This document shows, one piece after another, positions 2,610-24,264 of a stretch of 64,000 nucleotides of DNA. Source of the DNA: Candidatus Scatovivens sp. (GTDB taxonomy: Bacteria > Bacillota > Clostridia > TANB77 > CAG-508). Numbering within the stretch: position 1 is the stretch's first letter; each line of letters begins with the position of its first letter. The translations under genes were made by a program, and so were the position numbers. Below the pieces are notes generated by a model that saw nothing but the letters and a program-made list of their open reading frames with translations, searched no databases and was not told the DNA's origin. Where the stretch lies: the NCBI GenBank assembly GCA_045646345.1, contig JAZRKN010000009.1:19599-83598 (forward strand). Direction: 5' to 3'.

Positions 2610-2680
2610 AGTTAATAATGACTATAATGTCTTTATTATAAATTTACATTAAAAGATAAAAGAAAGGGGGAAATAAACAT

Positions 2681-3283: not shown

Positions 3284-3300
3284 TAAAAAACAAGATAGAT

Positions 3301-3337
3301 AAAAGCTCTATGACGTAATGAAAATAGGGCTTTTATT
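3301..3337 (+). terminator. Rho-independent terminator after the tasA-like gene
   Basis: aaagctctat / atagggcttt stem (one G-U pair) followed by TTTATTT. Confidence 0.5.
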
Positions 3338-3395
3338 TAAATATATTGACAAAAGGTTTTAACTTTTTGTGAGTATATTTAAGGAAAGAGTAAAT

Positions 3396-4112: not shown

Positions 4113-4133
4113 AGTTTATTTGAAAGGGTACAA

Positions 4134-4760
4134 ATGAAATTAACAGAAGCAGCTGTTTGGAATAGGAAAAAGAACTCTAATAAAATAAAAAAAAGACTAA
4201 ATATAATGTTTTACGTTATATTAATTCCTTTGCTTGCTTATAATATGGCTTTGATTGTACAAGCTGTAGTAAGGCCAAATGAAACACCAGCTTTTTTAGG
4301 ATATAAGATGTATGTCATAATATCTGGAAGTATGCAACCAGAATTAGAAGTGGGAGATATTGTTGTTGTAAAGAAAATTAATCCAAATGATTTAAAAAAA
4401 GATGATGTGATTTCTTTTAGAAAAGGTCAAACAATAATAACTCATAGAATTGTAGAAGTAAAAAACGCAGAGGAAAAACTACAGTTTTTAACCAAAGGAG
4501 ACAATAACAACACTAATGATAAAGACTTAGTTTCTGACAAAGAAATCGAAGGAATTGTAGTAAATAAAATACAAAAAATAGGAAAAATTGTATTGAAATT
4601 GAGAGATAAAACATTAATTATTGTGATAATTCTTATATATTATATATTCTTAATGTATGATCAATCAGTTCAAAAAAGAAAGAACTTAAGAAGAATAAAA
4701 AGAGAAGAATACGAAGAGAAAAAGAGAAAGGAAAACTTGGATGAAGGAGCGAAAGATTAA
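4134..4760 (+). CDS. sipW: Signal peptidase I, SipW type (second paralog)
   Basis: ISGSMQPELEVGDIVVV, ITHRIVEV and KGDNNN motifs parallel to the first SipW; C-terminal TM plus K/E-rich tail. Confidence 0.8.
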   Translation: MKLTEAAVWNRKKNSNKIKKRLNIMFYVILIPLLAYNMALIVQAVVRPNETPAFLGYKMYVIISGSMQPELEVGDIVVVKKINPNDLKKDDVISFRKGQTIITHRIVEVKNAEEKLQFLTKGDNNNTNDKDLVSDKEIEGIVVNKIQKIGKIVLKLRDKTLIIVIILIYYIFLMYDQSVQKRKNLRRIKREEYEEKKRKENLDEGAKD

Positions 4761-5256
4761 ATTACATAATTTAATTTTTATATATGTTATAACAACTATA
4801 ATTGTAACAGTATTTTCGTTTTCGAAATATGTTACAACAGTTTCTGCTGAGAATAAAGCTACACTTGCAGCTATGGCAACTAATATGTCTGTAAATATAG
4901 CGTTAACTCAAGAAGCATATCCAGGTTTTTCAATGGTTTTTCCAGTAGAGATATCAAATAAAGAAAACGATAAGATTTGTGAAGTTTCACAAGAATATGT
5001 TTTAAGAATAGATAGAGCTGACATGGAAAACTTGCCACTTGAATTTTCATTATATAATGATGAATTTTGCACAAGTGAAATTGAAGAAATACAAAAAGAT
5101 ACTTTTTTATCTGAAAGTTTTAAATTTACTGCAGGTGTTGAAGATACACAAACATATTATTTAAAAGTTTATTGGCCAGAGAATGAAAAAAATGAATTAT
5201 TAGCATTTGAAATTGGCTATTTTTCAGTAGAAATAATTGCGACACAAGTAGATTAA
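4741..5256 (+). CDS. Small secreted protein with SipW-cognate-like signal peptide
   Basis: MKERKIK...TVFSFSKYVTTVSAEN, i.e. a basic N-region, hydrophobic core and FSKY(V/T) motif; overlaps the sipW2 end by 20 nt (translational coupling). Confidence 0.5.
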   Translation: MKERKIKLHNLIFIYVITTIIVTVFSFSKYVTTVSAENKATLAAMATNMSVNIALTQEAYPGFSMVFPVEISNKENDKICEVSQEYVLRIDRADMENLPLEFSLYNDEFCTSEIEEIQKDTFLSESFKFTAGVEDTQTYYLKVYWPENEKNELLAFEIGYFSVEIIATQVD

Positions 5257-5275
5257 AATTTGGAAAGGACGTAAA

Positions 5276-6043
5276 ATGAAAACTAAAAAAATTAAATCTA
5301 GATTTAATTTTAATAAGTTACTTTTATTAATTATTCCAATTATATTTTTAACAGGTTCTGTTGCTAAATATATTAAAGAAAAAAATGCAGAACTTGTATA
5401 TGAGGCTAAAAGTTTCTATTTTGAAAGTGATTTGCTTTCTAATAATACTAAGGCATTAGCTTATACATATGATGTTGGAAATGATGAAATAACAATTAAT
5501 TTAAATAATAATATTGATGACTTAAGATATTCAGATGTTGATATTAAATATACTGTATCTATAAAAGATGCTCAAGGTAATCAAGTAAAAGATAAAAACG
5601 GAGATATATTAGAAGATATAACAGGTAAATTATCAAATAACAGTATAGATTCAAAAAAAATAACATTTGAAAATTTACCAGCGGGAAAATATATTGTTGT
5701 AGCAAAGGCAACAGAACCGTATGAGAAAACCTTGCAAGCATCATTTGTATTAAAATCAAGAAATGATGCGGTGGAGTACAATGTAAGTGATTCAGCTAAT
5801 AGTCCAGTATTACAACTAACAGTAAAAACGACAGATTATAAAGGTGATGTAAAAATAACATGGCCAGCTAACATTGTGCCAGATAATACAGATTCTAAAT
5901 TTGCAAATGTAAATTCTGGTTATAGTGGTGGAAATATAATAATTCCTTTTGAAGCTAATTCAGAATATACATTTCAATTTTTTAAAAAACAACCTAGTAT
6001 GAGTTATGGTAAAACAAGCTTTGTGGTAGAAAGGAGCGAATAA
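5276..6043 (+). CDS. Secreted protein with SipW-cognate-like signal peptide
   Basis: MKTKKIKSRF...FLTGSVAKYIKEK matches the G(T/S)xAKY pattern also seen in the 2681 gene; its stop abuts the giant gene start. Confidence 0.5.
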   Translation: MKTKKIKSRFNFNKLLLLIIPIIFLTGSVAKYIKEKNAELVYEAKSFYFESDLLSNNTKALAYTYDVGNDEITINLNNNIDDLRYSDVDIKYTVSIKDAQGNQVKDKNGDILEDITGKLSNNSIDSKKITFENLPAGKYIVVAKATEPYEKTLQASFVLKSRNDAVEYNVSDSANSPVLQLTVKTTDYKGDVKITWPANIVPDNTDSKFANVNSGYSGGNIIIPFEANSEYTFQFFKKQPSMSYGKTSFVVERSE

Positions 6044-6045
6044 TA

Positions 6046-9000
6046 ATGAGAAATAATTCAAAAAATAATATAAAATTATTACTTATACTTATTATTGTTT
6101 TAGCTTTCATACCATATAAGCTTATTTTTTCGAAAGCGGAAGAAACTAATAATGAAGTAGAAAAAAATACAATTATTGAATCTAATATAGAAACGACAAA
6201 TTTGAATTTAGGTCAAGAAGAGAATATTGTATCAAATGAAGTACAAATTTCAAATGATAGAGAAACAGAAAATATTGTAAGTGAAAAATCAAATACAGAA
6301 ACAAATACAACTGTAGAAAATGTGGTTACAGAAAAAAACAACGAAAATCAGGTTGTCGAAAATGAAGTAAATGAGAATACTATAAATCAAAATACTATAA
6401 ATCAAAATACAGTAGAGAATATTGTTTCAAAAGATGAATATGAAAATAAAGTTGCAACAAATGAAATATCAAATACAGTTGCTACATCAAATGAGAACGT
6501 TGCTATCGGAAATTTTGTTGTTAGTCAAGAAATGCAAGAATTATTAGGTGCTATGGCAGAACCAGTTGATGAACCGGAAGTACAAGAGATTTCTGAAATT
6601 GGGTTAAAAGCAACTCTTTGGGATTCTGAACAATATAGTGCAGGAACTGGAACAGAATTAACAGAAGTTGGAGCAACAGTTAATAATTGGCAATTTGAAA
6701 CAAATAAATATTTACAAATTGATCCAAAAGTAGTTGCTGATGGTAATACATACATTATAACGGTTGAACTACCACAAGAATTTTATATAATAGGATCAGA
6801 ATTATCTGTACCAACAGGATATCAAAATGTTAACTTTACAAAAAATGCAGAAATTGTGATAAATGATTCCCAAAAGTATGAATTAAAACCATATAGTGGA
6901 ACAGCTGAATATACATTAAATAATATGGTTGAAAGTGGAACTATACAAATTGGTATAGGATATGATGTTGTTTTGTGGGATAAACAAGAAAATTCTTCAT
7001 TAACTCCGGATGGGGTTAATCCAATAACAGTTAAACTTTCAAAAAAAGAATCTGATGGAACACTAACAGAATTAAATAGAGTACTAATTTCAAAAGCTTT
7101 TTCGGGAAGTAAAAATCAAGATGCGGTTAATGTAAATGGAATGTTAGAAGGGGAATCTTCAGGATTATCAACTATTGTTGCAAATAAAGATGATAGAATT
7201 AAATTTGTAAAATCTATTAATAATAATGATGGTATGGTTAGATATAAATATTATAAATCAGCAAAAATTACTGTAAAATTACCAAGCTATACTGATACTA
7301 ATGGAAAAATACATTATTTATCTTTTGATGAATCAACTTTAGATTTATCAAAAGTTGCACATACTTCCAAAAATGTGGATTTATCGCAAGCTGATGCTGG
7401 TATAGTTACAATTGATTTAGTAAATCCTTACTGGAATTCTGGAACGTTAGTTGGATTTGTTGTAGGCCCGCTTCCAGAAGAATTATTAGAACAAAATATA
7501 AATTCTTTTATATTTAAAAATGGAACTATAACAACTGTTGTTAATGGAAAAAATGGAAATAATAATATAACATATCGTACTTGTTCAATTCCATCAGTAG
7601 AATATCAAAAAGAAAGTTTAGAAAATGTAGTAATATCTTCACAAAATAAAGGTGTTACTATAGTTGAAAGACCAAATGACGCAGTGTCAATTTTGGGAGG
7701 AATATATTTAGAAAACAAAGGTACTGGTGTAAGTTGTCCAAAAAATATTGATTTGAAATTCGACATTAATAATACAAATTTAATAAAAGTTACAACAATA
7801 AATATATTTGCTGACACGATACAAGAATATATAGATGTTACATATACATTGGTTGATGAAAATGGAAATAGAGTATTTTTGGATAATAATGGAAATAGAG
7901 TTTCAGAAGGTTCTAATGAGGCGATTGGAGAATGGGTATATTCACTAAAAAATACATATAAAAATTCAACAAAGAAAGAAAATTTAAAAAATACAATAAC
8001 AAGAGGAAAATTACCTGAAGCACATAGACAATATTATTTTAAATCTGTAAATTATAATTTAGAATCAATAAATGAACAAACTAGATTATATGCACCATCT
8101 TCAGTTTTAACTCTTACAGCTGCTGGTAATTTTTTAGGATATGTTGATGATTCAAGTGGAAATAATGAAAAAACAGCAGCTTCAAAAATGGTTGTTACAT
8201 CATTAGATGCAGGTATTACTAATCTAGAAAGAACTGTAACTACAACACTTCAAAATACAAGTACGCCAACATATATAATTGATAATGCAACTATAAATAA
8301 AACAAAAATACAAGCTGGAGAATCATTTAATATTTCTGGAAAAGTAGTTACTCCTTCTTATCCATATGGAAATAGTACATGGTTAAAAAGAATAACTTTA
8401 GCTGTTAAACTTCCAAAAGATATTACAATAAATGAACAAGCAATTGTATTGAAAAATGCGAAAGGACTATTAATAAGTGGTTCTACTGTTACAACTCAAG
8501 ATATAGGTAATGGAAATATTTTATGGAAAATAAAATTACCAGAAGATATATGTATAGGAAGAGCTTCTGAAGATATAGGTACGTTACCTTCTGGAGATAC
8601 AATATCATTTGATTTACAATTAGATACTTCATATACAATGAATGCAGTAACAATATTTGTTAAAGATTTAGTAACTGTAGGTGCTTATAAACAATTGAAT
8701 AATGCAAGCGGATCATATTCGTGGGCTTCTAAAGCGGATATATATGATATAAACGAAAATGGATCTACAACAGATAATATAGGTGGTATAAAATCAAGTA
8801 ACGCTAGTGCATGTCAAATTATTTCTCAAACAGCTACGTTGGAAATTCAAGATTCTATAAGTGTTGAATCAAATGGAATTGTTTCAGAGGAATCAAATGT
8901 CGGTAAGATTTTTTCAGTAGAAGATACTATCAATTATAATTTAGATATAGGATGTTTTAGTGGTGGTAGAGCAGAAGGGTTTGTTTATTACATACCAATT

Positions 9001-11151
9001 CCTAAAAAAACAACAATTACAGATAATTTCTTAATTGAAAATAGTAAGAATGGTAAATTCGAACTTGAATTAACAGAAGAACCGATATATACAGGAACTA
9101 ACATATTTGATTTAAGTTATGTTATGCAAGATGGAATTACATATGCTTCAGCTCCAAGTGTAACTAATTGGTACACAGCAGAACAAATAAATAATGATGA
9201 TTCTTTAAATTTTGAAGATGTTACAATGATAAAATTAACAGTTAAAGATGCTGCTATAAAAAATGGTGATAAAGTAAGAATTACATTAAAATTGAAATAT
9301 GTAGGTGAAAGTTTTAGAGAAGAAGCTGGTAAAGAAAATATCTGGCATAGTGGTGGATATTATAGATTTATAAACAGTGACAGAGAAAGTGCAGGAAATT
9401 TTGCAACAGAAGGTGTTTCTATAAAATTAAATTGTGAAGATATTGAACTTGATGAAATAACATTAACTGCAGCAAGAGGTATGGTTCCAACTGGTGTGGG
9501 AAATGTTAATGTAGTAAATATATCAGAAACAGAATTCCCAATTTTTGAAAATGCTCACACATTTGAAATAACAGATGTAGAAACTTACAATGTAATTTTA
9601 AAATCAAAAGATTATATGCTTGCTAATCCAGATATGCCGGGTATAGATGCAAATCAAAATTTTGCTATAACGGTAAATATGGGAACAAAAGAAGTAAATA
9701 TATTAGAAAGTGCAAAAGAAAATCCTATTGAAATAGGAACTATTTCAGCAAATTCGTCACCAAGCTTCACTTACCAAATATATAATGCAGATGCTTTAAA
9801 TGATAATTCGCAAATAAGATATATAATTGTAACGTTACAAAGTGAAAATGGAATAACATTAAAACAAAAAATTAATATAAATAGAGAGGTTGTTCAAGCT
9901 TCAGATCCACAAATTGCTATAGTAGCAGGAAAAAGATATGTGACATTTGATGATTTAACGACAGATACAGTAATAAGTCAAGATTCATCATTTACAGCAC
10001 AATTTATATTAGAATATATACCAAATACATATAAAGATGAGAGAATTACTTTTTCAAATGCTTTACCTGTCGGAACAAAAATAATATTAGAAAATTTTAC
10101 TGATGAGGCAAATCCAACATATTGGTATTATTCAGTGAATTCTGCTATTTCTACAATTAAATTAGAAGATTTTGTTGCAATGGGAAGAACTGGAAGTGAT
10201 AATTACAATATGCCAAACGATTTGGATATTATAAAAGAAAAACTTTTAGTATTAGTTGATTTCTCTCAATGTTCAAATTGTCTTTCATCAGAAACATATT
10301 CAATAAAATTACAATTAACAGGAACAACTACAGATGTTGAAGATTTTGATTCAAATGAATTGAAATTTTCGCTAAGAAATAAAAATACTTTTGTGTTAAA
10401 TGAAATTTCAAATGCAAAAATGGGAGAAAAATTTAATATAAATTATACAATGAACTTGACCCAAGGTGCAGACACTAAATATGGAGGAAGAAAAGCTTCT
10501 TTGGTAATAACTGCTCCGGATAATATTCCATCAGATACTATGCTAACAATTCAAAATAATGTGTATAATTTGAATGCTGAAAAGCAATTTATAGTATCGC
10601 TTGGAGATATAAAAACACAAACAAGTTCATTAGAAATGAATATCTTTTCTAATATGCAACCAGATGTGGAAACGATATATGAATTTGATATAGCATTATG
10701 GATTTCAGCAACTGCTAATGCTGATGCTCCAAAATTAGGAGAATTAATTTCTGCTAAAAAAATAAATATAACAACTAATAATGAGTTGAATCCTGCTCTT
10801 AAAGTAACAAATATAAGTTCAAGAATTATTAAAAAAGATGAACTAAATCAATTATATACACTTGATTATAAGTACAAGCCGGATGCTAATTGCAAAGTAA
10901 CTGTAGAATTACAACAAAAAATTGGTAGTGCTTATAAGAAAGTAACTGATAAATTAAATCAAGTAAATGGATCAACGGCTCATACAATGGGAACATTTGA
11001 TATAAATCCTGATTCAGGAAATAATATATTAGAATTTAGATTGTCATCAATAACAGAAAAAGCAACATATAGAATTGTGTTTAAAGTTTGTGACGATGCA
11101 GGAACAACAATATTAGAAGTTCCATATAATTTTATAGTGTTAGACAAATAA
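6046..11151 (+). CDS. Giant secreted protein (1701 aa), putative fibre/adhesin
   Basis: N-terminal signal/anchor (LLLILIIVLAFIPYKLIFSKAEE), then an N/E/T-rich low-complexity stretch with NTINQNTINQ repeats, then about 1500 aa of beta-rich domains; no LPXTG, SLH or choline-binding C-terminus. Confidence 0.6.
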   Translation: MRNNSKNNIKLLLILIIVLAFIPYKLIFSKAEETNNEVEKNTIIESNIETTNLNLGQEENIVSNEVQISNDRETENIVSEKSNTETNTTVENVVTEKNNENQVVENEVNENTINQNTINQNTVENIVSKDEYENKVATNEISNTVATSNENVAIGNFVVSQEMQELLGAMAEPVDEPEVQEISEIGLKATLWDSEQYSAGTGTELTEVGATVNNWQFETNKYLQIDPKVVADGNTYIITVELPQEFYIIGSELSVPTGYQNVNFTKNAEIVINDSQKYELKPYSGTAEYTLNNMVESGTIQIGIGYDVVLWDKQENSSLTPDGVNPITVKLSKKESDGTLTELNRVLISKAFSGSKNQDAVNVNGMLEGESSGLSTIVANKDDRIKFVKSINNNDGMVRYKYYKSAKITVKLPSYTDTNGKIHYLSFDESTLDLSKVAHTSKNVDLSQADAGIVTIDLVNPYWNSGTLVGFVVGPLPEELLEQNINSFIFKNGTITTVVNGKNGNNNITYRTCSIPSVEYQKESLENVVISSQNKGVTIVERPNDAVSILGGIYLENKGTGVSCPKNIDLKFDINNTNLIKVTTINIFADTIQEYIDVTYTLVDENGNRVFLDNNGNRVSEGSNEAIGEWVYSLKNTYKNSTKKENLKNTITRGKLPEAHRQYYFKSVNYNLESINEQTRLYAPSSVLTLTAAGNFLGYVDDSSGNNEKTAASKMVVTSLDAGITNLERTVTTTLQNTSTPTYIIDNATINKTKIQAGESFNISGKVVTPSYPYGNSTWLKRITLAVKLPKDITINEQAIVLKNAKGLLISGSTVTTQDIGNGNILWKIKLPEDICIGRASEDIGTLPSGDTISFDLQLDTSYTMNAVTIFVKDLVTVGAYKQLNNASGSYSWASKADIYDINENGSTTDNIGGIKSSNASACQIISQTATLEIQDSISVESNGIVSEESNVGKIFSVEDTINYNLDIGCFSGGRAEGFVYYIPIPKKTTITDNFLIENSKNGKFELELTEEPIYTGTNIFDLSYVMQDGITYASAPSVTNWYTAEQINNDDSLNFEDVTMIKLTVKDAAIKNGDKVRITLKLKYVGESFREEAGKENIWHSGGYYRFINSDRESAGNFATEGVSIKLNCEDIELDEITLTAARGMVPTGVGNVNVVNISETEFPIFENAHTFEITDVETYNVILKSKDYMLANPDMPGIDANQNFAITVNMGTKEVNILESAKENPIEIGTISANSSPSFTYQIYNADALNDNSQIRYIIVTLQSENGITLKQKININREVVQASDPQIAIVAGKRYVTFDDLTTDTVISQDSSFTAQFILEYIPNTYKDERITFSNALPVGTKIILENFTDEANPTYWYYSVNSAISTIKLEDFVAMGRTGSDNYNMPNDLDIIKEKLLVLVDFSQCSNCLSSETYSIKLQLTGTTTDVEDFDSNELKFSLRNKNTFVLNEISNAKMGEKFNINYTMNLTQGADTKYGGRKASLVITAPDNIPSDTMLTIQNNVYNLNAEKQFIVSLGDIKTQTSSLEMNIFSNMQPDVETIYEFDIALWISATANADAPKLGELISAKKINITTNNELNPALKVTNISSRIIKKDELNQLYTLDYKYKPDANCKVTVELQQKIGSAYKKVTDKLNQVNGSTAHTMGTFDINPDSGNNILEFRLSSITEKATYRIVFKVCDDAGTTILEVPYNFIVLDK

Positions 11152-11154
11152 ATA

Positions 11155-11190
11155 AAAAAGAAGAAGTTGTTTTAACTTCTTCTTTTTTTA
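11155..11190. terminator. Bidirectional rho-independent terminator
   Basis: aaaaagaagaagttg / aacttcttcttttttt hairpin between convergent genes. Confidence 0.75.
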
Positions 11191-11191
11191 T

Positions 11192-12121
11192 TTAAATTTT
11201 ATTATTTGTTCTTCTTTTTGGAAGTGGCTTTGAAGAGATTACTGTTGGCGAAACTTCAAAAACAATATTAAAACAATCAAATTTATACATTTCATTATTA
11301 TCTAAATAATCTAAGTAAATATCAAGTTCATCAATATTTCTACAAGCCGCTATAATTGCTGGATGTAGGTTGTAATTGAAAAATAATTCAACTCCTAATT
11401 CTAGTCCGTCTTTTGTTGATAGATTTTCTTTGTTCTTTATCAATTTAAAGGCTTCTTTAAATCTAGATATTGAAGCATTTTTGAAGAACGATAATGGAAT
11501 TGTATAATGTGTTTGAATAATTTCTTCATATGATGAAAATTTATTTTTATTAGCAGAAAAGATTTGCTCTAATTCATGATATGTATATGGTAAAAAAACA
11601 GTTTGTTTTGTTTCTGAAATTACTAGAGTGTTTTCTCTTTTTAAGTCTTCTGGTAAATTATTTTTTAATTCTTCGAAATTGACAATAGGATCAGCTTCAG
11701 TTAATTCTAATTTTATATTTATGTTTTGGTCTGAAAATTGATTTAATGCTTTTTCAATTTGTAGAGTATTTAATTGAACAGTACTATAAGCTTCCGAAAA
11801 AGTAGAATTAAAGTTGTTAATTTTTTCTTCAGTTAGTGAATTCATGTTATTCTCTTTTATTGCATTTGTTAGAATTGTAAGCAATAGGTTTAATTTATTT
11901 AAAATTGCAATATTAGAATTAGAAACTTCAAGAGTTTCTTTTAGAAAATTTACTATTTCTGGGGTTGAATTATTTTTTTGAAATTTATCAAGATATTTTG
12001 AAATAGTTTCTTTTTTTATGTTTTGTACATCTAACATTGATGATAAAATCTTTTTTTCATAATCCAAAAGCATATTAAATTTTTCATGATTTTTAATTAA
12101 TTCTTCTGTAAAAAATATCAT
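11192..12121 (-). CDS. Hypothetical cytoplasmic protein (309 aa)
   Basis: Long minus-strand ORF convergent with the giant gene and sharing its terminator; no recognisable motif. Confidence 0.5.
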   Translation of the reverse strand: MIFFTEELIKNHEKFNMLLDYEKKILSSMLDVQNIKKETISKYLDKFQKNNSTPEIVNFLKETLEVSNSNIAILNKLNLLLTILTNAIKENNMNSLTEEKINNFNSTFSEAYSTVQLNTLQIEKALNQFSDQNINIKLELTEADPIVNFEELKNNLPEDLKRENTLVISETKQTVFLPYTYHELEQIFSANKNKFSSYEEIIQTHYTIPLSFFKNASISRFKEAFKLIKNKENLSTKDGLELGVELFFNYNLHPAIIAACRNIDELDIYLDYLDNNEMYKFDCFNIVFEVSPTVISSKPLPKRRTNNKI

Positions 12122-12334
12122 ATATTTACACCTCGAATATATTATATATTAAAAAATTTTAAAAATCAGTATTTTAATATAAATTTAATATAAGAGATAT
12201 TTTGATAAATAAAAGGAGTTTAACTTTCGTGAAAAAATAATTTAAAAAAGTATAAATGATACATAAAAGTTATTGTAAAAAAAATATATTATTTGTAAAA
12301 TATTGTTATAAACAAAAGATAATGGGAGGTTTCT

Positions 12335-15300
12335 ATGACTAGAAAAAAAGTAGGAAAATTTTTATTATATATAATAATTGCTATGCTTATTATTTCTTCA
12401 TGTTACTGTTTTTGGTCTTATTTTTCCAAAGGTAAACAAAAAATAACAGTAAAAACAAGTAACAATTGTTATAGTGGTGAAAGTATTAATGCTACTATTG
12501 CTGTAATGAATGTTAAAACTAATAAAGCGATAGATGCAAAAATCACAGCAACATTATATGATAGTGATGACAAGAAAGTAAAAGATGTTGTTACTAAAAT
12601 GGAAATTGAAAAAGGAGAAGCTGGAGAATTAGCTTTAAATGTACCGGAAGACTTAAAAAGTGGAAAGTATACTTTAAAGATAAAATCTAATTCGGGATTT
12701 TATTCCGATACAGCAGAAATTCCAATTAATGTTAAAAATGATAAAAAGTCAAATGTGATAATTTCTTTTGATAAAGGGATTTATAAACCTGGAGATGAAA
12801 TTAATTATAGAATTTTAATGCTTTCTAAAAGAGATGAAACTCCTTTGAGTCAGAATATTAAAGTTTCAATATATGATGGAAATGATAATAGAGTTTATAT
12901 AGAAGAAGCTGTGACTTCTGAATATGGTATTATTTCAGGAAAGTTTAAATTAGCAGATGAGGTTAATAGTGGTACTTATAAATTAAAAGTTGAATCTGAT
13001 AGACAGGAAGTTACAAAAACTTTTAATGTAAATCCATATATAATTCCAACCTTTGAAGTTGAAGTTTCATCAGATAAAGATAATTATATTGTTGGAGATG
13101 TGGCTAAAATAAAGGTAGATGCTAAATACTTTTTTGGAGAGCCTGTAAAAAAAGCTGAAATAAAAGGAACTGTTGACGGAAAAGAAGTTGTTGGATTGAC
13201 AGATGAAAACGGAAGTTTTACATACGAATATAAATTTGGAAAAGCTTCTAAAATAGTTGCAGATTTTACTGTGGTAGATTCATCTAATTATTTGATAGAG
13301 GCGTCAAAAATATTATGTTGTGGAACAGCATTATATGAAGTTGAAGTTATTCCAGAATATTCAGATATAGCTTATGGATTTGATAATGATATATATGTAA
13401 TTACTAAAAAAATAGATGGAACTCCAGTTAAAACTTATTCAACATTAAAAATAGGAAAAATTTCAAAACAAGTAATTTCTGATGAAAATGGAATCGGAAA
13501 AGTTACAATAACATCTAGCGAAACAGAAGAATTACCAAAAAAAGAAATGCTATCTGTTAAAGTTGAATCTGAAGATATGGAGTCAAACAAAGTAACAAAA
13601 ACACATCAATTATTAATTCATGATGCATTTCCTAATTTAATAAAAACGAACAAAACAAAATACAATGCTGGAGAAGATATTGAAATAAAATTAAATTCAA
13701 AAGTGAATACAAATACCAAAAATATATATGTCTTCAAAAGTAATGAACTTATTAAAACTATTGTTACAGATGATGATAATGTGAAAATTAATTTAGGCGA
13801 TGTCTCAGGGTTAGTTGATTTATATATTCCAAATCAAAAAAATATGTCAACAATATATAATTATTATGATGATTTTTATGAAACTTATAAAGTTAATATA
13901 GATTATTCTAAAAAGACAATTTTTATAAAACCAGAGAAAGAACTAAATATTTTAGTAGAACCGGTAAAAGATGAATATAAACCAGGAGATACTTTAGATG
14001 TTAAGTTCACTACAACTAATGAACAAAATGAGTTGGTAAATTCTGCTTTATTAGTGAGTATTTTAGATGAAGCGATACTTGCGTTAGCTGATAATGATTT
14101 GTCTATTGATAATATAAAATTAGCGTTAGAAGATATTGTTTTAGAACCAGGTATGACTGCTGCAGATTTATATGTAATGGCACTAGACGAATCTTCAGAT
14201 CTTGCTTTTAATTCTGTATTATTAAAACAAAAAGTAACAAATCCAGATATTTATACTAAAAATTATAGAAATTACGAAACAGAAATATATTTGATGTTTG
14301 GAATTATAGCTATTATAGTAGCTGCAATTTTAATAGCTTTAAGTTATATTGCTAAGAATAAAGAAAAAGTAGCTAAAGTGATAATTCCGGTAATAGATGT
14401 TTTGGCAATATTTATTTTAATGTATATATATGCTGAGGAAGTATTCGGTTTAATAGATAATTTATTTATGGTATTTGCAACATTTATTCTTTCAATAATT
14501 GCGTATTTGTTGTTCTTGTATAAAGAACGTGACTTTATATTTAAATTAGTATCAGAAATGATTGTAATTCCAATTGTCTCAATAATAGGAATATTCTTGA
14601 TTTCTATATTAGTATCTTTGGTATTTGATATATATATACCAAAAATATTTGCTTTAGTTTTAGGTGTAGTCGTTTTATTAATATTATTAGAGTTTGCTAT
14701 ATTAAAATCATTACAAAGAAAAAGAGGATTAAATAAAGTTTTAACAAAGATTTTTGAGTTTTCAAAACTAATTTCAAGAGCTGTTGTATTTTGGTTTTTA
14801 ACAATAGTATTAACAGAAATTACAGAATTTGGATTACTAATAGTTCTTGCTCTTTATTATTTATATAGAAAATTTATATTAAAAGAAGCAAAAACTAAAG
14901 TAGAAGATGGGAAAATAGTATTAAATTTAAATGTTTCTGAATTAGTGGGAATGCTAATAGGAATGTTATTAATTATAATTGTTATAGTAATAGTAATTTC
15001 TTCTAATTTAAATGATTATAGAGTAATGAATGATTCTGTAACTTCAGATGTTACGGCTCCTAGTTTACCTATGAAGGATTCGACAACAAATTCAAGTACT
15101 GTAACATTAGATTTTAGTCAAGTTACAGAGGATATGATAATCTCAGGAGCGTCTGATGCTACAGGAGCGGGAAGTAGCATAAATAATTCATTCGGTTCAA
15201 TGTTTGATTTTGATTTGAATATTATGCAAGATTCAAAAGCCGAATCATCTGTTGAGATGTCTACAGAAGATTTTGTTTCAGAAGGTGATAATTCAAATGA

Positions 15301-17392
15301 AATAGAAAATGAAATAGAAGAAAATGTTAGAAATGTATTTTTAGAAAGCTTAGCATTTATTCCAGAATTAGTTACAGAAAATGGTGTAGCAAATTTTAAA
15401 ACAGAGATTAGTGATAATATAACAACTTGGAATATTCAAACAATAGGAAATACAAAAGAAGGAAATGTAGGATTTGGTTCAGGAAGTTTTAAAGTATTTA
15501 AAGAATTTTTTGTAGAATATACTCTTCCGGCAAATTCGGTTGTTACAGATAAAGTAAGTATTCCAGTAACACTACATAATTATACAGAAAAAAATCTAAT
15601 AATTGATTTATTAGTAAAAGAAAATGATTGGGCGATTATTGGTGATTATGAAAAACAAAATGTAGTTGAAGCTAAATCAACAAAAATGATATATGTACCA
15701 ATTGAAATTTTAAAAGATGGAAACAATACATTAAGAATAGAAGCGAATTCAGGAAAAAAATCAGATATAGTTGAAAAAACGTTAGTTGTTAAACCTAATG
15801 GTTTAGAAAAAAATGTAGTAGTTTCAAGCGGAATGATTGAAAATAAATATTCTCAAGATATCATATTTAATGAAAAAGCGATTGAAAAAACTGAAAAAAT
15901 AAAAGTAAAATTATATGCATCGCCAGTTGTTCAAGCGATAGAAAATATAGATGCTATGTTAAGAATGCCAACAGGATGTTTTGAACAAACTTCTTCTTCG
16001 TTATATCCAGATATTTTAGTTTTGAAATATTTAAGAGAACATGATTTAAGTAATAAAGAATTAGAAGAAAAAGCGTTAAATTATATATCTAAGGGATATC
16101 AAAAGTTATTAACTTATGAAGTAAAAACTAAAAAAGGTGGATATTCATTGTATGGATATGCACCAGCAGAACCTGTAATAACAGCCTTTGGGTTAATGGA
16201 ATTTAATGAACTTTCAGAAGTTTATGAAGTTGAAGAAAAAGTTATTGATAATATGGTTGAGTATTTATTTGATGTTCAAAATGTAAATGGAAGTTTTGAT
16301 TATAATACTGTTTATATTGGTGGAACTGCTAGTAGAGATGATTTAGCAATGAATGCATATATTATTTGGGCTTTATCAGAGGTTGTTCCAAATGATAAGA
16401 GATTAGAAAAATCAATAAGTTATTTAGAAAATAAATTAGATAAAATTAAAGATAACTATACATTAGCATTAATTGCAAATATTTTTGCTAATACTGATAA
16501 TAAGAATTCAGCAAATGAAGTTTTAAAAATGATAAATCAAAATATTAAAGTAACAGAAAATGGTGCTTATATTGCTTCAAATATTTCGGATTATTATGGA
16601 ACAAGAGGTAATCATCAAAATAACCAAGCGACAGCACTAACATCAATGGCTTTGACTAAACTAAATTCAAATCAAAAAAATAATGAAGAATTTGTAAAAT
16701 TCTTAGTAAGTCAAAAAGATAAATATGGAAGTTGGGGAACAACACAAGCAACAGTACTTGCATTAAAAGCAATTAATAGCTTTACTCAAAATTCTGATAT
16801 TAAAGATCAAACAATAACTATAAAATTAAATGATAAAGAAGAAAAAATAGAAATAAAAGAAAATGCTTTAGATGTTTATGAAGTAGAGTTTGATAATGTA
16901 TCAAAAGAAAATAGATTATTAATTGATATGAAAAAAGGTAAAATAACATATGAAGTAATTAAAAATTATTATCAAAGTTATGCAGAAATAGATGATGATT
17001 TACAAAATGAGAATAAATTAAGTGTAGTACAGAACTTAAGTAGTGTAGCAAAAGTAAACGATATAATTACTCAAAACATATCAATAAAAAATAATAAAAC
17101 ATATATTGAAAATGGATTGATAGAAATTAATATACCACAAGGAACTACTCCGGTAGAAGCTTCATTAATGAATTTGAAATATAATGGAATAATTGAAAAA
17201 TATGAATATAATTATAATAAAATTAATCTTTATATAAGGGGATTTGAACCTGGAGAAGAAGTATTATTGGATATTCAATATAGAGCATTATATCCAGAAA
17301 ATATTACTGGTGGAGCAATAAGATTTTTTGATTATTATAATCCAGAAATTGAAGAAATTTGTTACCCAAAAGTTCTTATAGTAGAAGAATAA
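12335..17392 (+). CDS. Alpha-2-macroglobulin family thioester protein with an embedded polytopic membrane domain
   Basis: N-terminal signal anchor; MG-like repeats; about 8 TM helices (roughly nt 14280-15030); Ser/Thr/Asp-rich linker; FLESLAFIPEL...DNITTW (A2M FPETWLW...DSITTW region); MLRMPTGCFEQTSSSLYPDILVLKYL matching the A2M thioester [23 protein letters not shown]; TAFGL motif. Confidence 0.8.
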   Translation: MTRKKVGKFLLYIIIAMLIISSCYCFWSYFSKGKQKITVKTSNNCYSGESINATIAVMNVKTNKAIDAKITATLYDSDDKKVKDVVTKMEIEKGEAGELALNVPEDLKSGKYTLKIKSNSGFYSDTAEIPINVKNDKKSNVIISFDKGIYKPGDEINYRILMLSKRDETPLSQNIKVSIYDGNDNRVYIEEAVTSEYGIISGKFKLADEVNSGTYKLKVESDRQEVTKTFNVNPYIIPTFEVEVSSDKDNYIVGDVAKIKVDAKYFFGEPVKKAEIKGTVDGKEVVGLTDENGSFTYEYKFGKASKIVADFTVVDSSNYLIEASKILCCGTALYEVEVIPEYSDIAYGFDNDIYVITKKIDGTPVKTYSTLKIGKISKQVISDENGIGKVTITSSETEELPKKEMLSVKVESEDMESNKVTKTHQLLIHDAFPNLIKTNKTKYNAGEDIEIKLNSKVNTNTKNIYVFKSNELIKTIVTDDDNVKINLGDVSGLVDLYIPNQKNMSTIYNYYDDFYETYKVNIDYSKKTIFIKPEKELNILVEPVKDEYKPGDTLDVKFTTTNEQNELVNSALLVSILDEAILALADNDLSIDNIKLALEDIVLEPGMTAADLYVMALDESSDLAFNSVLLKQKVTNPDIYTKNYRNYETEIYLMFGIIAIIVAAILIALSYIAKNKEKVAKVIIPVIDVLAIFILMYIYAEEVFGLIDNLFMVFATFILSIIAYLLFLYKERDFIFKLVSEMIVIPIVSIIGIFLISILVSLVFDIYIPKIFALVLGVVVLLILLEFAILKSLQRKRGLNKVLTKIFEFSKLISRAVVFWFLTIVLTEITEFGLLIVLALYYLYRKFILKEAKTKVEDGKIVLNLNVSELVGMLIGMLLIIIVIVIVISSNLNDYRVMNDSVTSDVTAPSLPMKDSTTNSSTVTLDFSQVTEDMIISGASDATGAGSSINNSFGSMFDFDLNIMQDSKAESSVEMSTEDFVSEGDNSNEIENEIEENVRNVFLESLAFIPELVTENGVANFKTEISDNITTWNIQTIGNTKEGNVGFGSGSFKVFKEFFVEYTLPANSVVTDKVSIPVTLHNYTEKNLIIDLLVKENDWAIIGDYEKQNVVEAKSTKMIYVPIEILKDGNNTLRIEANSGKKSDIVEKTLVVKPNGLEKNVVVSSGMIENKYSQDIIFNEKAIEKTEKIKVKLYASPVVQAIENIDAMLRMPTGCFEQTSSSLYPDILVLKYLREHDLSNKELEEKALNYISKGYQKLLTYEVKTKKGGYSLYGYAPAEPVITAFGLMEFNELSEVYEVEEKVIDNMVEYLFDVQNVNGSFDYNTVYIGGTASRDDLAMNAYIIWALSEVVPNDKRLEKSISYLENKLDKIKDNYTLALIANIFANTDNKNSANEVLKMINQNIKVTENGAYIASNISDYYGTRGNHQNNQATALTSMALTKLNSNQKNNEEFVKFLVSQKDKYGSWGTTQATVLALKAINSFTQNSDIKDQTITIKLNDKEEKIEIKENALDVYEVEFDNVSKENRLLIDMKKGKITYEVIKNYYQSYAEIDDDLQNENKLSVVQNLSSVAKVNDIITQNISIKNNKTYIENGLIEINIPQGTTPVEASLMNLKYNGIIEKYEYNYNKINLYIRGFEPGEEVLLDIQYRALYPENITGGAIRFFDYYNPEIEEICYPKVLIVEE

Positions 17393-17404
17393 GTATGTAA
17401 AACT

Positions 17405-17438
17405 GAAGGAGTCATAAATAAAAGACTCCTTCTTTTTA
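17405..17438 (+). terminator. Rho-independent terminator after the A2M gene
   Basis: gaaggagtc / gactccttc hairpin followed by TTTTT. Confidence 0.75.
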
Positions 17439-22429: not shown

Positions 22430-23167
22430 ATGATAAGTTTACCAGAAGAAAAAATTTTGTATTCAGAAATACAAAAAAAGTTGTTTTATATAATACCTGA
22501 GAAATGGGAAAGTATATATTTATATGCTTCTGTAATTGATATGCCAAATCAAAAACCTGTTGGAGAAATGTATTTTTACTACTTACCAAAAGGTATAATA
22601 AAAAAGAAATTTGTTAATGGCTATGAGATTCCATCAATTTTTAATATTGATGAAGAACAATATTCTAAATTAATTACAGATGTTTATAATTTAATAAAAT
22701 TATTACGTGAACGTGCTGTAGAAACAAAAAGAAAAGTTTGGAGTAATATAAATATCACAATTGAGAATTTTAAATTTAAAATAGAGTTTGATTACGAAGA
22801 TTTAAAAAAATCTGAATTTGATTCTTATGAACGTCATGTAATATGGAGATATAATTATTTAAAAGAGGATTCGGAAGTTTTAAGTAGAAAAGATAGAAAG
22901 ATAATTGATAAATATTTAAAATATACAGAAACAAGAATCCCGTTAAAGAAAGATTCTTATATTGAAGGAATATATAAACAACCTGTTAAAAATATTATAG
23001 ATTTTGAAAAGACTTTAACAGTTGAAGAAGCTATAGCTCAATCTAATGAACCGAAAGAGAAAAAGAAAAAAAGAATTTTTGGTAACAAGAATAAAATAGA
23101 TGATGTTATTGACGAGGATGATGAAAATCAAACATATAATAATCAGATATTAAATTGGAAAAAATAA
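22430..23167 (+). CDS. DUF600 / YezG-family (polymorphic-toxin immunity-like) protein with C-terminal K/E/D-rich extension
   Basis: LYSEIQKKLFYIIPEKWESIYLYASVID...EMYFYYLP...FDYEDL...HVIWRYNYL follows the DUF600 (YezG/TIGR01741) pattern; starts 16 nt after the gpmI stop with an AGGAGA RBS. Confidence 0.55.
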   Translation: MISLPEEKILYSEIQKKLFYIIPEKWESIYLYASVIDMPNQKPVGEMYFYYLPKGIIKKKFVNGYEIPSIFNIDEEQYSKLITDVYNLIKLLRERAVETKRKVWSNINITIENFKFKIEFDYEDLKKSEFDSYERHVIWRYNYLKEDSEVLSRKDRKIIDKYLKYTETRIPLKKDSYIEGIYKQPVKNIIDFEKTLTVEEAIAQSNEPKEKKKKRIFGNKNKIDDVIDEDDENQTYNNQILNWKK

Positions 23168-23171
23168 AGTT

Positions 23172-23206
23172 TAAAGAGTACTTAGAAATAAGTACTCTTT
23201 TTTTGT
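23172..23206 (+). terminator. Rho-independent terminator ending the glycolytic transcript
   Basis: aaagagtactt / aagtactcttt hairpin followed by TTTTTT. Confidence 0.75.
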
Positions 23207-23265
23207 TCTAAATAAAAAAATGTTGAATATATATTATTATATTAAAATGTGAAAGGTTATATTAT

Positions 23266-24264
23266 ATGGATCGAATTTTAAAATATTTTCCTATAAATAT
23301 AAAAGTGATTTTAGAAAAAGAAATTGGAGAGAAAAAGAACAGTTTAGAAGAAATTAGAATAAGAGTACAAAAACCAATTATTTTAAAATTTAATTCTGGT
23401 GAAAAAATTGTAAGATATTTTATAACTCAAGAAGAAATTTTAAATATATTGCAATATGTTTGCGAAAATTCAATATATAGTTATCAAAAACAAATTTCTG
23501 AAGGATTTGTAACTGTTACTGGTGGACATAGAGTGGGAATATCGGGCTCTTGTGTGATGGAAAATGGTAAAGTTATAAATATTAATTATATAAATGGCTT
23601 AAATTTTAGAATAGCGAGACAAGTTATAGGTGCTAGTGAAAAAATATTAGAAAGTATATTAGACGTTGATAAAAATTCTATTCGAAATACATTAATAGTG
23701 TCTCCTCCAGGATGTGGTAAAACTACTATTTTAAAGGATTTAGTAAAACAAATATCAAGTGGAATAAGGCAAAAAAAGTTTAAAGGAATTGATGTTGGAG
23801 TTGTTGATGAAAGAGGAGAAATTGCAGCACTATATAAAGGAGTTCCTCAAAATGAAATTGGAATAAAAACAGATGTAATGTCTAATGTTACTAAAAGTAT
23901 TGGATTAAAAATGTTAATAAGAAGTATGGCACCACAAATTGTTGTTGCAGATGAAATTGGAACGAAAGAAGATGTTGATATTATAAATTATGCGATGTGT
24001 TCAGGATGTAAAGGGATATTTACGGCTCATGGTTCAAATTTTGATGAGTTGTATTTGAATCCTATAATAAAAGAATTAATAAATAATCACATATTCGAAC
24101 TGATTGTTTTTTTAGATGAAAAAATCAAAGGAGAAATAAAAGAATTATATATTCTTGATAAGAAAATGACACAGTATAAAAAAGAAGAAAAAAGAAAAAT
24201 TAAAGATAATGTAGGGTTAGATTTTTTATTAGGTGAAAATGATGGAATTGATAAAATGTTTTAA
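23266..24264 (+). CDS. spoIIIAA: Stage III sporulation protein AA (ATPase)
   Basis: Walker A SPPGCGKTT; first gene of a conserved 8-gene operon. Confidence 0.85.
   Translation: MDRILKYFPINIKVILEKEIGEKKNSLEEIRIRVQKPIILKFNSGEKIVRYFITQEEILNILQYVCENSIYSYQKQISEGFVTVTGGHRVGISGSCVMENGKVININYINGLNFRIARQVIGASEKILESILDVDKNSIRNTLIVSPPGCGKTTILKDLVKQISSGIRQKKFKGIDVGVVDERGEIAALYKGVPQNEIGIKTDVMSNVTKSIGLKMLIRSMAPQIVVADEIGTKEDVDIINYAMCSGCKGIFTAHGSNFDELYLNPIIKELINNHIFELIVFLDEKIKGEIKELYILDKKMTQYKKEEKRKIKDNVGLDFLLGENDGIDKMF

Follow-up and report, generated by a model that had tools for sequence, protein, structure and literature searches.

The window, a 64,000-nucleotide stretch of clostridial DNA, contains a gene for a member of the A2M/TEP/complement superfamily whose thioester motif is intact and whose bait-region position is filled by eight predicted transmembrane (TM) helices. 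The complete open reading frame encodes 1685 aa (12335..17392; + strand, as for every feature given below) and was assigned from the sequence, Pfam matches and homologues to a membrane-integrated A2M/TEP-like thioester protein. By analogy with better characterized macroglobulins, we consider it rather probable that the product is a cell-surface covalent protease trap of the A2M/thioester-protein kind, integrated in the cytoplasmic membrane of a spore-forming gut Clostridium.

Gene and Family

The A2M-like gene has its own strong ribosome-binding site and its own terminator. A Shine-Dalgarno sequence, GGGAGG, was read 5 nt before the ATG (12324..12329), and an intrinsic terminator (17405..17437) lies behind the gene, with a 9-bp GC-containing stem (17405-17413 paired with 17424-17432), a 10-nt loop and a T5 run. 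The terminator scan overlooked this hairpin because of its 10-nt loop; it was found by eye and by folding. Its RNA fold has an energy of -14.7 kcal/mol (z = -4.09), and none of 200 shuffled sequences was equally stable. The promoter scan was uninformative in this DNA of 26% GC, with 56 sites found against 51 expected, and the tRNA and Rfam scans gave zero matches.

An exact look-up of the protein sequence returned no database record; P0001 is 99% identical. The earlier note had raised the question of whether orthologues share the membrane insert, and the insert proved to be common to more than 120 full-length homologues and to 43 species-level genomes, all of uncultured animal-gut Clostridia from various hosts and studies. 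The homologues have 42-99% identity and the same architecture, with lengths of 1640-1718 aa among more than 120 independent cluster representatives from several sources. Because the architecture recurs in this way, it is not an assembly artefact. The sole point favoring a mis-join, in which the assembler would have spliced a membrane-protein fragment into an A2M gene, is the unusual architecture itself; besides the recurrence, the uniform base composition and continuous reading frame across the region argue against it, and we regard its probability as negligible.

Among 44 loci of the family, those of close relatives (about 11-19 loci, depending on the gene) have a radical-SAM methylthiotransferase gene upstream and a gap-pgk-tpi-gpmI group downstream; the neighbors are otherwise variable. 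No conserved partner gene, operon or PBP gene was found beside the A2M-like gene at these 44 loci. An upstream 1701-aa ORF and an S26-like peptidase were considered as partners and rejected, since both belong to an island (1980-12121) that is limited to this genome (1-2 of 43 loci) and absent from relatives, in which the radical-SAM gene directly precedes the A2M-like gene.

Macroglobulin and Thioester Domains

The hallmarks of A2M that the earlier note had claimed are borne out by domain searches and structure prediction. Pfam recognizes A2M-superfamily domains on both sides of the membrane insert, and AF2 models beta-sandwiches on either side of it. The matches to TED_complement (aa 1199-1481, E 3e-39), MG2 (aa 141-232, E 2e-22, in two stretches), A2M (aa 1006-1088, E 1e-16) and A2M_BRD (aa 436-584, E 2e-7) are significant, and a GCFEQ thioester motif is present. 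The match to MG3 (aa 235-272) is weaker, with an E of 5e-4 and 20.8 bits, below the 23.1-bit Pfam cut-off. The motifs quoted in the note were all located, FIPEL at aa 1008, DNITTW at aa 1027-1032 and MPTGCFEQTSSSLYPDILVLKYL at aa 1211-1233. Residues 585-1005 have no credible Pfam match, and the insert falls at the bait-region position, where the note had placed it, between A2M_BRD (ending at aa 584) and A2M (starting at aa 1006).

The chain begins with an N-terminal signal-anchor helix, TM0 (aa 9-30; 12359..12424), detected by a Kyte-Doolittle scan. It is a 22-residue hydrophobic helix behind a Lys/Arg-rich tail of 8 aa, and across the family this tail has a mean of 3.9 Lys+Arg. TM0 has no conserved lipobox, because the Cys residues inside it are not conserved; a Cys at the lipobox-like column 23 occurs in only 13 of the 121 sequences. 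The N-terminal macroglobulin array that follows (aa 32-585; 12428..14089) was delineated by Pfam and AF2 and comprises MG2, the sub-threshold MG3 and A2M_BRD (MG5/MG6 first part). Its mean family identity to the query is 51%, and AF2 places beta-sandwich strands at aa 434-578. A conserved helical connector (aa 586-647; 14090..14275), with AF2 helices in aa 579-630 and a mean family identity of 54% over aa 586-650, precedes the membrane block.

On the far side of the insert, MG6 second part/MG7 (the A2M domain, aa 1006-1088, with FIPEL and DNITTW) is followed by a beta-rich segment (aa 1089-1198) at the place expected for CUB, the two together spanning 15350..15928. AF2 gives beta strands at aa 1006-1153 with a pLDDT of 70-89, including strands at aa 1089-1153, and the mean family identity over aa 1006-1198 is 65%. 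The thioester domain (aa 1199-1481; 15929..16777), defined by TED_complement, aligns to the TEDs of CD109, A2ML1, A2M and TEP1. Its G-C-F-E-Q motif (aa 1214-1218; 15974..15988) is found in 121 of 121 family members and in almost all region-covering members of the best 150 cluster representatives. The second half of CUB and an MG8/receptor-binding-type domain are expected in the C-terminal region (aa 1482-1685; 16778..17389). PF07677 (A2M_recep) is precomputed for P0001 and for many homologues and is found in relatives as well; the query itself gave no match to it at E <= 0.1. A fold search matched C5, CD109, C3, A2M and ECAM with E down to 1e-13, and the best PDB sequence matches are CD109 (5e-45), A2ML1, A2M, TEP1 and C3. 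These results confirm that the protein belongs to the A2M/TEP/complement superfamily and that its thioester motif is intact.

C3 and CD109 have their catalytic His in a loop that is devoid of His in 110 of the 121 family sequences. Since HMMER and manual alignments of this loop disagree, we limit the claim to the absence of a conserved His in the loop, which suggests that the putative thioester is of the amine type. The same loop bears on an alternative role for the protein as a covalent surface adhesin or tagging protein. Acting like complement or TEP opsonins, the protein would use its thioester to bind the cell to host mucus, food particles, other microbes or phage, and the tether behind the bundle would serve as an activation switch, to be cut by proteases of the bacterium itself or of the host. 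The architecture alone is silent on what the thioester attacks, the closest solved relatives include the opsonin-type TEP1 and C3 besides inhibitors, and the family genomes all come from animal guts. However, hydroxyl (carbohydrate) reactivity of C3, C4B and TEP1 depends on a His in this loop, and those 110 sequences have none there, albeit in an ambiguous loop alignment. CD109 and A2ML1, both monomeric inhibitors, are the best matches. The characterized bacterial A2Ms, ECAM and MagD, trap proteases (PMC4498604, PMC5764988). We therefore consider an adhesin unlikely and favor the protease trap.

Membrane Bundle, Topology and Tether

The eight-helix transmembrane bundle (aa 648-891; 14276..15007) is supported by AF2, family hydropathy and loop charges, and it coincides with the hydrophobic block of about eight TM helices that had been claimed at nt ~14280-15030. 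In the AF2 model of aa 635-905 (pLDDT 83.5, pTM 0.71), the helices are H1 (648-674), H2 (676-704), H3 (710-728), H4 (732-764), H5 (768-797), H6 (801-829), H7 (833-848) and H8 (867-891), with a cytoplasmic beta-hairpin at aa 855-862 between H7 and H8. A Kyte-Doolittle scan and the hydropathy averaged over 121 sequences agree with the hydrophobic block. Conserved positions in the bundle are N/D688, Y724, Y729, K730, E/D/N/Q741, P746, Y841, E/D869 and G872xxxG876.

No solved fold, Pfam family or described polytopic membrane-protein family matched aa 648-891. The membrane block has 31% identity, compared with 51-65% in the MG and TED domains, and therefore evolves faster than they do. In relatives, the minimal form of the insert is a plain hairpin, as in P0136 with two helices, and the cytoplasmic loops of the bundle are at most 25 aa long. 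Given the missing Pfam family, the faster evolution, the plain-hairpin form and the short cytoplasmic loops, the bundle is likely to be a two-point anchor and re-export device, not an enzyme or transporter. The conserved polar residues of the bundle (N/D688, E/D/N/Q741, E/D869, Y724 and P746) hint at a role beyond anchoring. The N-terminal anchor by itself would tether the protein, and eight further helices are not needed for that.

The topology was derived from the positive-inside rule, AF2 and the parity of helix counts in relatives. Automated counting of TM helices was unreliable, as the A2M_BRD strand 'ALLVSILDEA / IVDEAVFAL' was scored as a helix and H6 and H7 were merged. Parity was therefore judged by combining AF2 with the family profile and with inserts short enough to be read manually. 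Over 121 sequences, the segment ahead of H1 is weakly acidic (net -0.6), and the net charges of the successive loops are +3.2, -2.6, +1.3, -1.3, +3.8, -1.5 and +2.3, with -1.9 after H8. The eight helices and this alternation of basic and acidic loops uphold the earlier reasoning that an even TM count would leave both flanks outside. Among relatives, the clearly readable inserts have two (n=5), four (n=7), six (n=1) or eight helices, and odd counts are not found; P0210, P0219 and P0242, with ambiguous odd counts and a weaker extra hydrophobic segment, were counted neither way.

An odd count would result if H6 and H7 were one long helix. The TED-bearing C-terminal half would then be cytoplasmic and its role unrelated to extracellular proteases. 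A simple hydropathy/dynamic-programming scan does fuse aa 816-840 into a single segment, and the hydrophobic cores of H6 and H7 are short, at 12-13 aa. However, AF2 splits the segment into two helices at aa 830-832. Residues 816-848 are Lys/Arg-rich at both flanks with an acidic center in 84% of the sequences, the tether that follows H8 is acidic in 100% of them, and wherever the insert of a relative is unambiguous, its helix count is even. Such a fusion of H6 and H7 is thus highly improbable, and the computational analysis shows both halves of the protein at predicted positions outside the cell.

H8 is followed by a disordered, acidic tether rich in Ser, Thr, Asp, Glu and Asn (aa 892-1005; 15008..15349), defined by AF2 and the family alignment. 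The flexible Ser/Thr/Asp-rich stretch described in the earlier note corresponds to this segment, which is indeed disordered (AF2 pLDDT <35) and hypervariable in both length and sequence. Across the family (aa 890-995), it is 71-131 aa long with 21% mean identity, has a net charge of about -13 and is acidic in 121 of 121 sequences. These features make the tether the candidate bait, and its cleavage may lead to protease trapping.

Comparison with Known Systems

The best solved sequence match is human CD109 (PDB 8s3o, 9fx2), with E 5e-45 over the full length and 5e-22 for the TED. Both proteins are membrane-tethered and thioester-bearing and have the same order of MG, bait, MG7, TED and C-terminal domains. 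Without its insert, the query has about 1265 aa, a metazoan size, compared with 1445 aa for CD109. CD109 is a monomeric metazoan protease inhibitor with a C-terminal GPI lipid tether and an ordinary soluble bait region, whereas the query is clostridial, with an N-terminal helix and eight helices in the bait slot, and the identity is about 20-25%.

ECAM/YfhM and Sa-A2M (PDB 5a42, 4u4j) are, like the query, bacterial thioester macroglobulins anchored to the cytoplasmic membrane. In the fold search they ranked 44 and 47, and their chains are absent from the best 60 PDB sequence matches. By sequence, the query is closer to metazoan CD109, A2ML1, A2M and TEP1 than to E. coli ECAM. The thioester motif of ECAM is CLEQ, compared with GCFEQ in the query. 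ECAM is a periplasmic lipoprotein of Gram-negative bacteria with its lipid at the N-terminus, whereas the host of the query is a Firmicute and the query family has no conserved lipobox. ECAM-type A2Ms are monomeric and are thought to guard the envelope against proteases (PMC4498604, PMC5764988), and ECAM has extra N-terminal domains (PMC12939704). Matches to the extra bacterial MG domains (MG0/NIE; Pfam bMG3, bMG5, bMG6, bMG10) did not reach the cut-off in the query, the best being bMG5 at E 0.028 and 15 bits against 26.5. The ECAM gene is often found beside pbpC (PMC5764988); this pbpC (PBP1c) linkage is absent at the 44 query-family loci.

The absence of a conserved operon also separates the query from type II bacterial A2M (MagD/YfaS), as does the presence of a thioester motif. 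The type II proteins are without this motif and belong to a six-gene mag operon with a membrane partner, MagB. Labels of 'YfaS' on some relatives are generic COG names and do not indicate type II A2M identity.

In complement C3, C4 and C5, an anaphylatoxin domain and the beta/alpha chain processing site lie between the MG6 halves. The MG6 slot therefore tolerates insertions and chain breaks. The complement insert is a small soluble helical domain in soluble proteins, whereas that of the query is a membrane bundle. Human A2M and A2ML1 and insect TEP1 share with the query the domain set and the thioester signature. Their bait lies between the two MG6 parts and its cleavage leads to covalent capture (PMC9181621, PMC9156758); the bait region domain has about 66-126 aa (PMC12939704). 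In contrast to the query, with its TM bundle, these proteins are soluble and secreted and their bait domain has no transmembrane helices.

Proposed Mechanism

In the topology derived computationally, the N-terminal signal-anchor helix exports the MG1-MG6 array, and the chain enters the membrane at the bait-region slot as the eight-helix bundle. H8, with its N-in/C-out orientation and a Lys/Arg-rich loop before it, re-exports the remaining chain, so that MG7, the C-terminal domain and the TED with its Cys-Gln thioester come to lie outside, near the N-terminal half. For this topology, we propose a mechanism modeled on A2M, ECAM, A2ML1 and CD109. The disordered, acidic, fast-evolving tether of 71-131 aa between H8 and MG7 would serve as the bait. 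A protease arriving at the membrane surface would cut the tether, and the cut would free the strained native conformation and expose the thioester, leading to covalent capture of the protease. The captured protease would stay on the cell because nine helices anchor the N-terminal chain and the shared MG6 would hold both chains together. Distant homologues of 20-25% identity are the source from which we extrapolate the formation of the thioester, the cleavage of the bait and the capture of the protease. After the bait cut, the TED-bearing chain would have no covalent tie to the membrane, and its retention relies on an assumed MG6 complementation.

Cutting of the tether could also alter the conformation or stability of the bundle and thereby signal to the cytoplasm, regulated intramembrane proteolysis being one conceivable route; the protein would then be a sensor of proteases or envelope damage. 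The polar residues conserved within the bundle support such a sensor, as does the anti-sigma-type N-terminal domain of some distant TM-insert relatives (P0397, PF13490; P0408, 'RsiW'). In the query family, however, the cytoplasmic N-tail has 8 aa, the cytoplasmic loops have at most about 25 aa and an output domain is absent. Nor do the family loci have a conserved neighboring gene for a sigma factor, kinase or site-2 protease. Moreover, since the bait is not attached to TM0, a tether cut would yield no short stub for site-2 proteases. We regard a sensor as quite improbable in this family, and the protease trap remains our preferred reading.

The Wider GCFEQ Clade

The earlier note knew of no A2M with a polytopic membrane insert. 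This holds for the open-access PMC and bioRxiv literature searched, in which no description of a TM-insert A2M was found, but the protein is not a one-off. TM hairpins or bundles of 2-8 helices commonly occupy the bait slot in a large, unannotated bacterial GCFEQ clade, and the design recurs in unannotated bacterial proteins by the hundred. At E <= 1e-30, about 1,800 cluster representatives fall into the wider clade, some of which may be metazoan A2Ms. The content of the slot varies across this clade, from helical hairpins or bundles to a GspG-like domain or a CarboxypepD_reg domain.

A sister clade of TM-less GCFEQ macroglobulins (Myxococcota, Planctomycetota, KSB3 and Poribacteria; e.g., P0165) has 30-35% identity. 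Like the query family, these proteins have the GCFEQ motif, the same Pfam set including A2M_recep and an N-terminal signal or anchor. Unlike the query, they have no internal TM helix in 116 of 118 cases. Their slot is filled by a soluble segment, with a GspG-like 'DPWG' motif in 92 of the 118, and P0153 has a CarboxypepD_reg domain there. The occurrence of TM inserts in Clostridia, Chloroflexota/Anaerolineae and Parcubacteria, and of TM-less forms in Myxococcota and Planctomycetota, fits the idea that the TM insert is a monoderm adaptation. As a rule this idea fails, since the Planctomycetota proteins P0397 and P0428 have six and two internal helices, respectively.

The last helix of the membrane-embedded forms combines a hydrophobic core with a basic n-region. 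A lipobox Cys is found at the end of this helix in 5 of 59 distant TM-bearing representatives, compared with 4 of 291 other helix ends; P0136, P0140, P0144, P0156 and P0179 are lipobox relatives. A tentative and rather unlikely possibility is that the bait slot is a swappable cassette and the last helix an internal signal, the precursor being cut and lipidated to give a two-chain, doubly anchored trap. In bacteria, the proposed cut and lipidation after the last helix would correspond to the beta/alpha processing of C3, which takes place at the same site. A cytoplasmic N-terminal zf-HC2 anti-sigma domain precedes TM0 in some distant TM-insert relatives, and TM0 lies at about aa 85-120 in many representatives; the domain is PF13490 in P0397, and the source of P0408 gives its name as 'anti-sigma factor RsiW'. 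In these anti-sigma-fused relatives, the TM-insert device could report protease attack to the cytoplasm.

Significance

Reviews of 2026 still place A2Ms in metazoans and Gram-negative bacteria (PMC12939704, PMC13069473). New here are a thioester macroglobulin family in Gram-positive gut commensals and a trap whose predicted trigger loop is threaded through the membrane. The wider GCFEQ clade bears on the long-standing question of which way A2Ms passed between animals and bacteria. If proteases are trapped at the surface, the protein may offer a natural scaffold for capturing proteases covalently by surface display, and it would be a candidate way for uncultured Clostridia to survive the pancreatic and microbial proteases of the gut.

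Domain Architecture and Family

The uninterrupted translation of ORF 12335..17392 (+) is 1685 aa long, in a window of 25–34% GC whose plus strand holds nearly all genes. Pfam matched MG2 (aa 141–232, E 2e-22), A2M_BRD (aa 436–584, E 2e-7), A2M (aa 1006–1088, E 1e-16) and TED_complement (aa 1199–1481, E 3e-39); MG3 (aa 235–272, E 5e-4) stayed below threshold at 20.8 bits against a cut-off of 23.1. No NCBIfam model matched the 1685-aa protein, and aa 585–1005 gave no credible Pfam family match. An earlier note on this DNA had read the ORF as an A2M from the motifs FIPEL, DNITTW and MPTGCFEQTSSSLYPDILVLKYL; all of these are found in the translation, the domain matches agree with that reading, and its coordinates are right to within a few codons. 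Computationally, the protein is clearly a member of the A2M superfamily with an intact thioester motif, and its insert lies between A2M_BRD, which ends at aa 584, and A2M, which starts at aa 1006. The observation is real, and the interpretation is supported.

In a database of 5.8 billion proteins, the query has more than 120 full-length homologues (1640–1718 aa, 42–99% identity), almost all of which cover its entire length; the sole named one is a "hypothetical protein [Clostridia bacterium]". GCFEQ is kept in 121/121 family sequences. The gene was also found at 43 loci in a scan with one genome per GTDB species, all of them MAGs of uncultured Clostridia from animal guts (rabbit, sheep, roe deer, mouse, human, chicken, Hadza samples), among them Candidatus Scatovivens, UBA1234 and UBA7001. 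The gene is thus one of a family rather than an artefact. Mean family identity to the query is 51% in the N-terminal MG array, 54% in the connector ahead of the membrane block, 31% in the block, 21% in the tether that follows it, 65% in MG7 plus TED and 54% at the C-terminus.

Topology of the Membrane Block

A Kyte-Doolittle scan shows a hydrophobic N-terminal helix at aa 9–30 (TM0) and a densely hydrophobic block (aa 651–890); after the block comes a Ser/Thr/Asp/Glu-rich stretch. The family-averaged hydropathy profile resolves eight hydrophobic segments (H1–H8). AlphaFold2, with an alignment of 53 sequences, modelled aa 635–905 as a confident bundle (pLDDT 83.5, pTM 0.71) of eight helices at aa 648–674, 676–704, 710–728, 732–764, 768–797, 801–829, 833–848 and 867–891, with a small hairpin (aa 855–862) in the basic H7–H8 loop. 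In a longer model (aa 420–1200), beta-sandwich domains flank the insert; this model gives the tether (aa 893–1005) a pLDDT below 35. The eight-helix block and the disordered stretch after it agree with the earlier note, which had described about eight TM helices between the N-terminal MG domains and the DNITTW/MG7 region, and a flexible Ser/Thr/Asp/Gly-rich stretch behind them. Conserved positions within the block are N/D688, Y724 (120/121), Y729, K730, E/D/N/Q741, P746, Y841, E/D869 and G872xxxG876.

The loops of the block alternate in charge (n=121 sequences). The segment before H1 is weakly acidic (net charge −0.6). The H1–H2, H3–H4, H5–H6 and H7–H8 loops carry +3.2, +1.3, +3.8 and +2.3 (positive in 99, 82, 98 and 91%), and the H2–H3, H4–H5 and H6–H7 loops and the segment after H8 carry −2.6, −1.3, −1.5 and −1.9 (negative in 93, 76, 84 and 81%). 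The whole tether carries about −13 and is negative in 100%. Together with about 3.9 Lys+Arg in the tail ahead of TM0, the positive-inside rule places TM0 N-in, the MG1–6 array outside, eight spans, and the C-terminal half outside. We thus predict eight helices with an N-out/C-out topology, followed by a tether that is disordered, hypervariable and acidic in the models and alignments.

Inserts in Relatives

Searching query aa 990–1685 against 1.84 billion cluster representatives gave 7435 matches at E ≤ 1e-3 and 1831 at E ≤ 1e-30. Among the best 150 representatives, almost all that cover the motif region have GCFEQ, and about 30 belong to the close family. The rest, at 30–35% identity, divide roughly equally between forms without an internal TM helix and forms with TM segments in the bait-region slot. 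Every insert short enough to be read by eye has an even helix count: two in P0136, P0144, P0156, P0183 and P0258, four in P0138, P0140, P0145, P0199, P0221, P0228 and P0243, and six in P0179. This is expected if both flanks must share one side of the membrane and, with the loop charges, bears out the proposal that both lie outside. The minimal form is a plain helical hairpin.

In several distant relatives the last insert helix ends in a lipobox (P0136 LASC, P0140 IIGC, P0144 LASC, P0156 IVGC, P0179 LSGC), with a basic loop before and a Pro/Ala/Ser-rich acidic linker after. Lipoboxes occur at the last helix in 5/59 TM-bearing representatives, against 4/291 other helix ends and 0/120 in the query's own family. 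This suggests an internal lipoprotein signal peptide, with two-chain processing possible.

A sister clade collected with P0165 as query (118 matches) has GCFEQ in 118/118, and 116/118 lack internal TM helices. In 92/118 the slot holds a "DPWG" motif like that of GspG, the type II secretion pseudopilin; the TM-less P0163 and P0174 have "DPWG...Y", typical of GspG, in this segment, PF08334 is precomputed for some TM-less members, and NCBI names one GspG. A CarboxypepD_reg domain fills the slot in P0153. The bait-region slot thus looks like a cassette with variable content. Named organisms with TM-less forms are Myxococcota, Deltaproteobacteria, Planctomycetota, KSB3, Poribacteria and Armatimonadetes. 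Named TM-insert forms occur in Clostridia (the query family, Acetivibrio alkalicellulosi, Thermoclostridium), Chloroflexota/Anaerolineae, Parcubacteria and Planctomycetota (P0428, two helices; P0397, six helices and a zf-HC2 anti-sigma domain at its N-terminus). Monoderm lineages are thus enriched for the insert, yet it is not confined to them.

Some relatives (P0397, P0408, many representatives) have a cytoplasmic N-terminal extension of 85–120 aa before the first helix, with TM0 at about aa 85–120 in, for example, P0177, P0190, P0208, P0214 and P0230. Annotated as zf-HC2 (PF13490) or "anti-sigma factor RsiW", such extensions are anti-sigma domains fused to a thioester macroglobulin embedded in the membrane, an arrangement that could sense proteases and signal their presence.

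Genomic Context

A strong Shine-Dalgarno sequence, GGGAGG (12324–12329, +), precedes the gene, and an intrinsic terminator (17405–17437, +; −14.7 kcal/mol, z = −4.1) follows. On its downstream side the gene is followed by gap, pgk, tpi and gpmI, and these by a gene for a YezG-like immunity protein (22430–23167) and spoIIIAA (23266–24264); the latter region (22430–24264) indicates that the source organism is probably an endospore-forming Firmicute. Close relatives (11–19 of 44 loci, depending on the gene) keep the order radical-SAM methylthiotransferase (149–1447 here), A2M, gap-pgk-tpi-gpmI. Across the 44 loci compared, more distant ones have no neighbours in common, and no conserved functional partner gene was found.

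An island of about 10 kb (1980–12121), which nearly all related genomes lack, separates the radical-SAM gene from the A2M gene. Its ORFs include one that weakly resembles S26 signal peptidases (4134–4760), one with weak Ig-like matches (5276–6043), one for a 1701-aa Asn/Thr-rich secreted protein (6046–11151) and a minus-strand ORF of 309 aa; neither the 1701-aa protein nor several small ORFs of the island match Pfam. A strong bidirectional terminator hairpin lies at 11154–11188. The island may encode surface fibres or be a cluster of the SipW/TasA type.

In 4/43 related genomes a +1 frameshift breaks the A2M gene (L024 ~11697, L025 ~11682, L028 ~11168, L026 ~11190), always at NNN C GGN (TCT C GGC, TCT C GGA, ATG C GGA, TCA C GGA): this gives CGG in the 0-frame, and reading goes on in a frame that begins one base later. 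Three of the four sites share about one protein position (~aa 560), and past the shift the frames run on for more than 1000 codons. These genomes otherwise hardly use CGG (0–2 per 5,000–8,000 codons); in the four interrupted loci, the few CGG codons seem to be mostly or entirely those of the shift sites. The +1 frameshifting may be programmed, at a "hungry" CGG codon; pseudogenes and a recurrent assembly error are the other candidates.

Relation to Known Macroglobulins and Proposed Function

By sequence, the nearest solved proteins are metazoan: CD109 (E 5e-45), A2ML1 (6e-44), A2M (1e-42), TEP1 (4e-39) and C3 (5e-27). The bacterial ECAM and Salmonella A2M are absent from the best 60 of 65 sequence matches to solved structures; only the fold search recovered them, ranked 44 and 47. 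Minus its insert, the query has about 1265 aa, the size of a metazoan A2M. No bacterial bMG domain reached its Pfam threshold in the query, and unlike type I (ECAM), its family has neither a conserved lipobox nor a pbpC neighbour. It therefore fits neither type I nor type II (MagD) as these bacterial A2Ms are defined (PMC5764988), though it is clearly in the superfamily. The loop in which C3, C4B and CD109 carry the hydroxyl-directing His holds no His in 110/121 members, which faintly suggests an amine-reactive thioester, as in protease-inhibitor A2Ms; the hint is weak because the alignment of this loop is ambiguous.

Two 2026 reviews list A2Ms solely for metazoans and Gram-negative bacteria (PMC12939704, PMC13069473). 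Among 8 million full texts, a corpus outside subscription journals, no description of an A2M with bait-region transmembrane helices, or of a clostridial A2M, was found. For Archaea, Makarova et al. (2021) report CxEQ homologues that carry signal peptides and vary in architecture; no mention of a TM insert was found there.

By analogy with A2M, ECAM, A2ML1 and CD109 (PMC9181621, PMC9156758, PMC4498604), we propose that the tether would be the bait: a protease near the membrane would cut it, exposing the thioester for covalent capture. The complex would be retained on the cell, as nine helices would hold the N-terminal chain and both chains would build MG6. The bundle has short cytoplasmic loops and drifts fast in sequence, and some relatives have no more than a hairpin; together this favors anchoring and re-export over catalysis or transport. 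Against a pure anchor, TM0 would already tether the protein without eight further helices, and the conserved polar residues of the bundle may have another role. Overall, our analysis points to a new architecture within a known superfamily, widespread yet unannotated, for which protease capture at the membrane is the proposed function.
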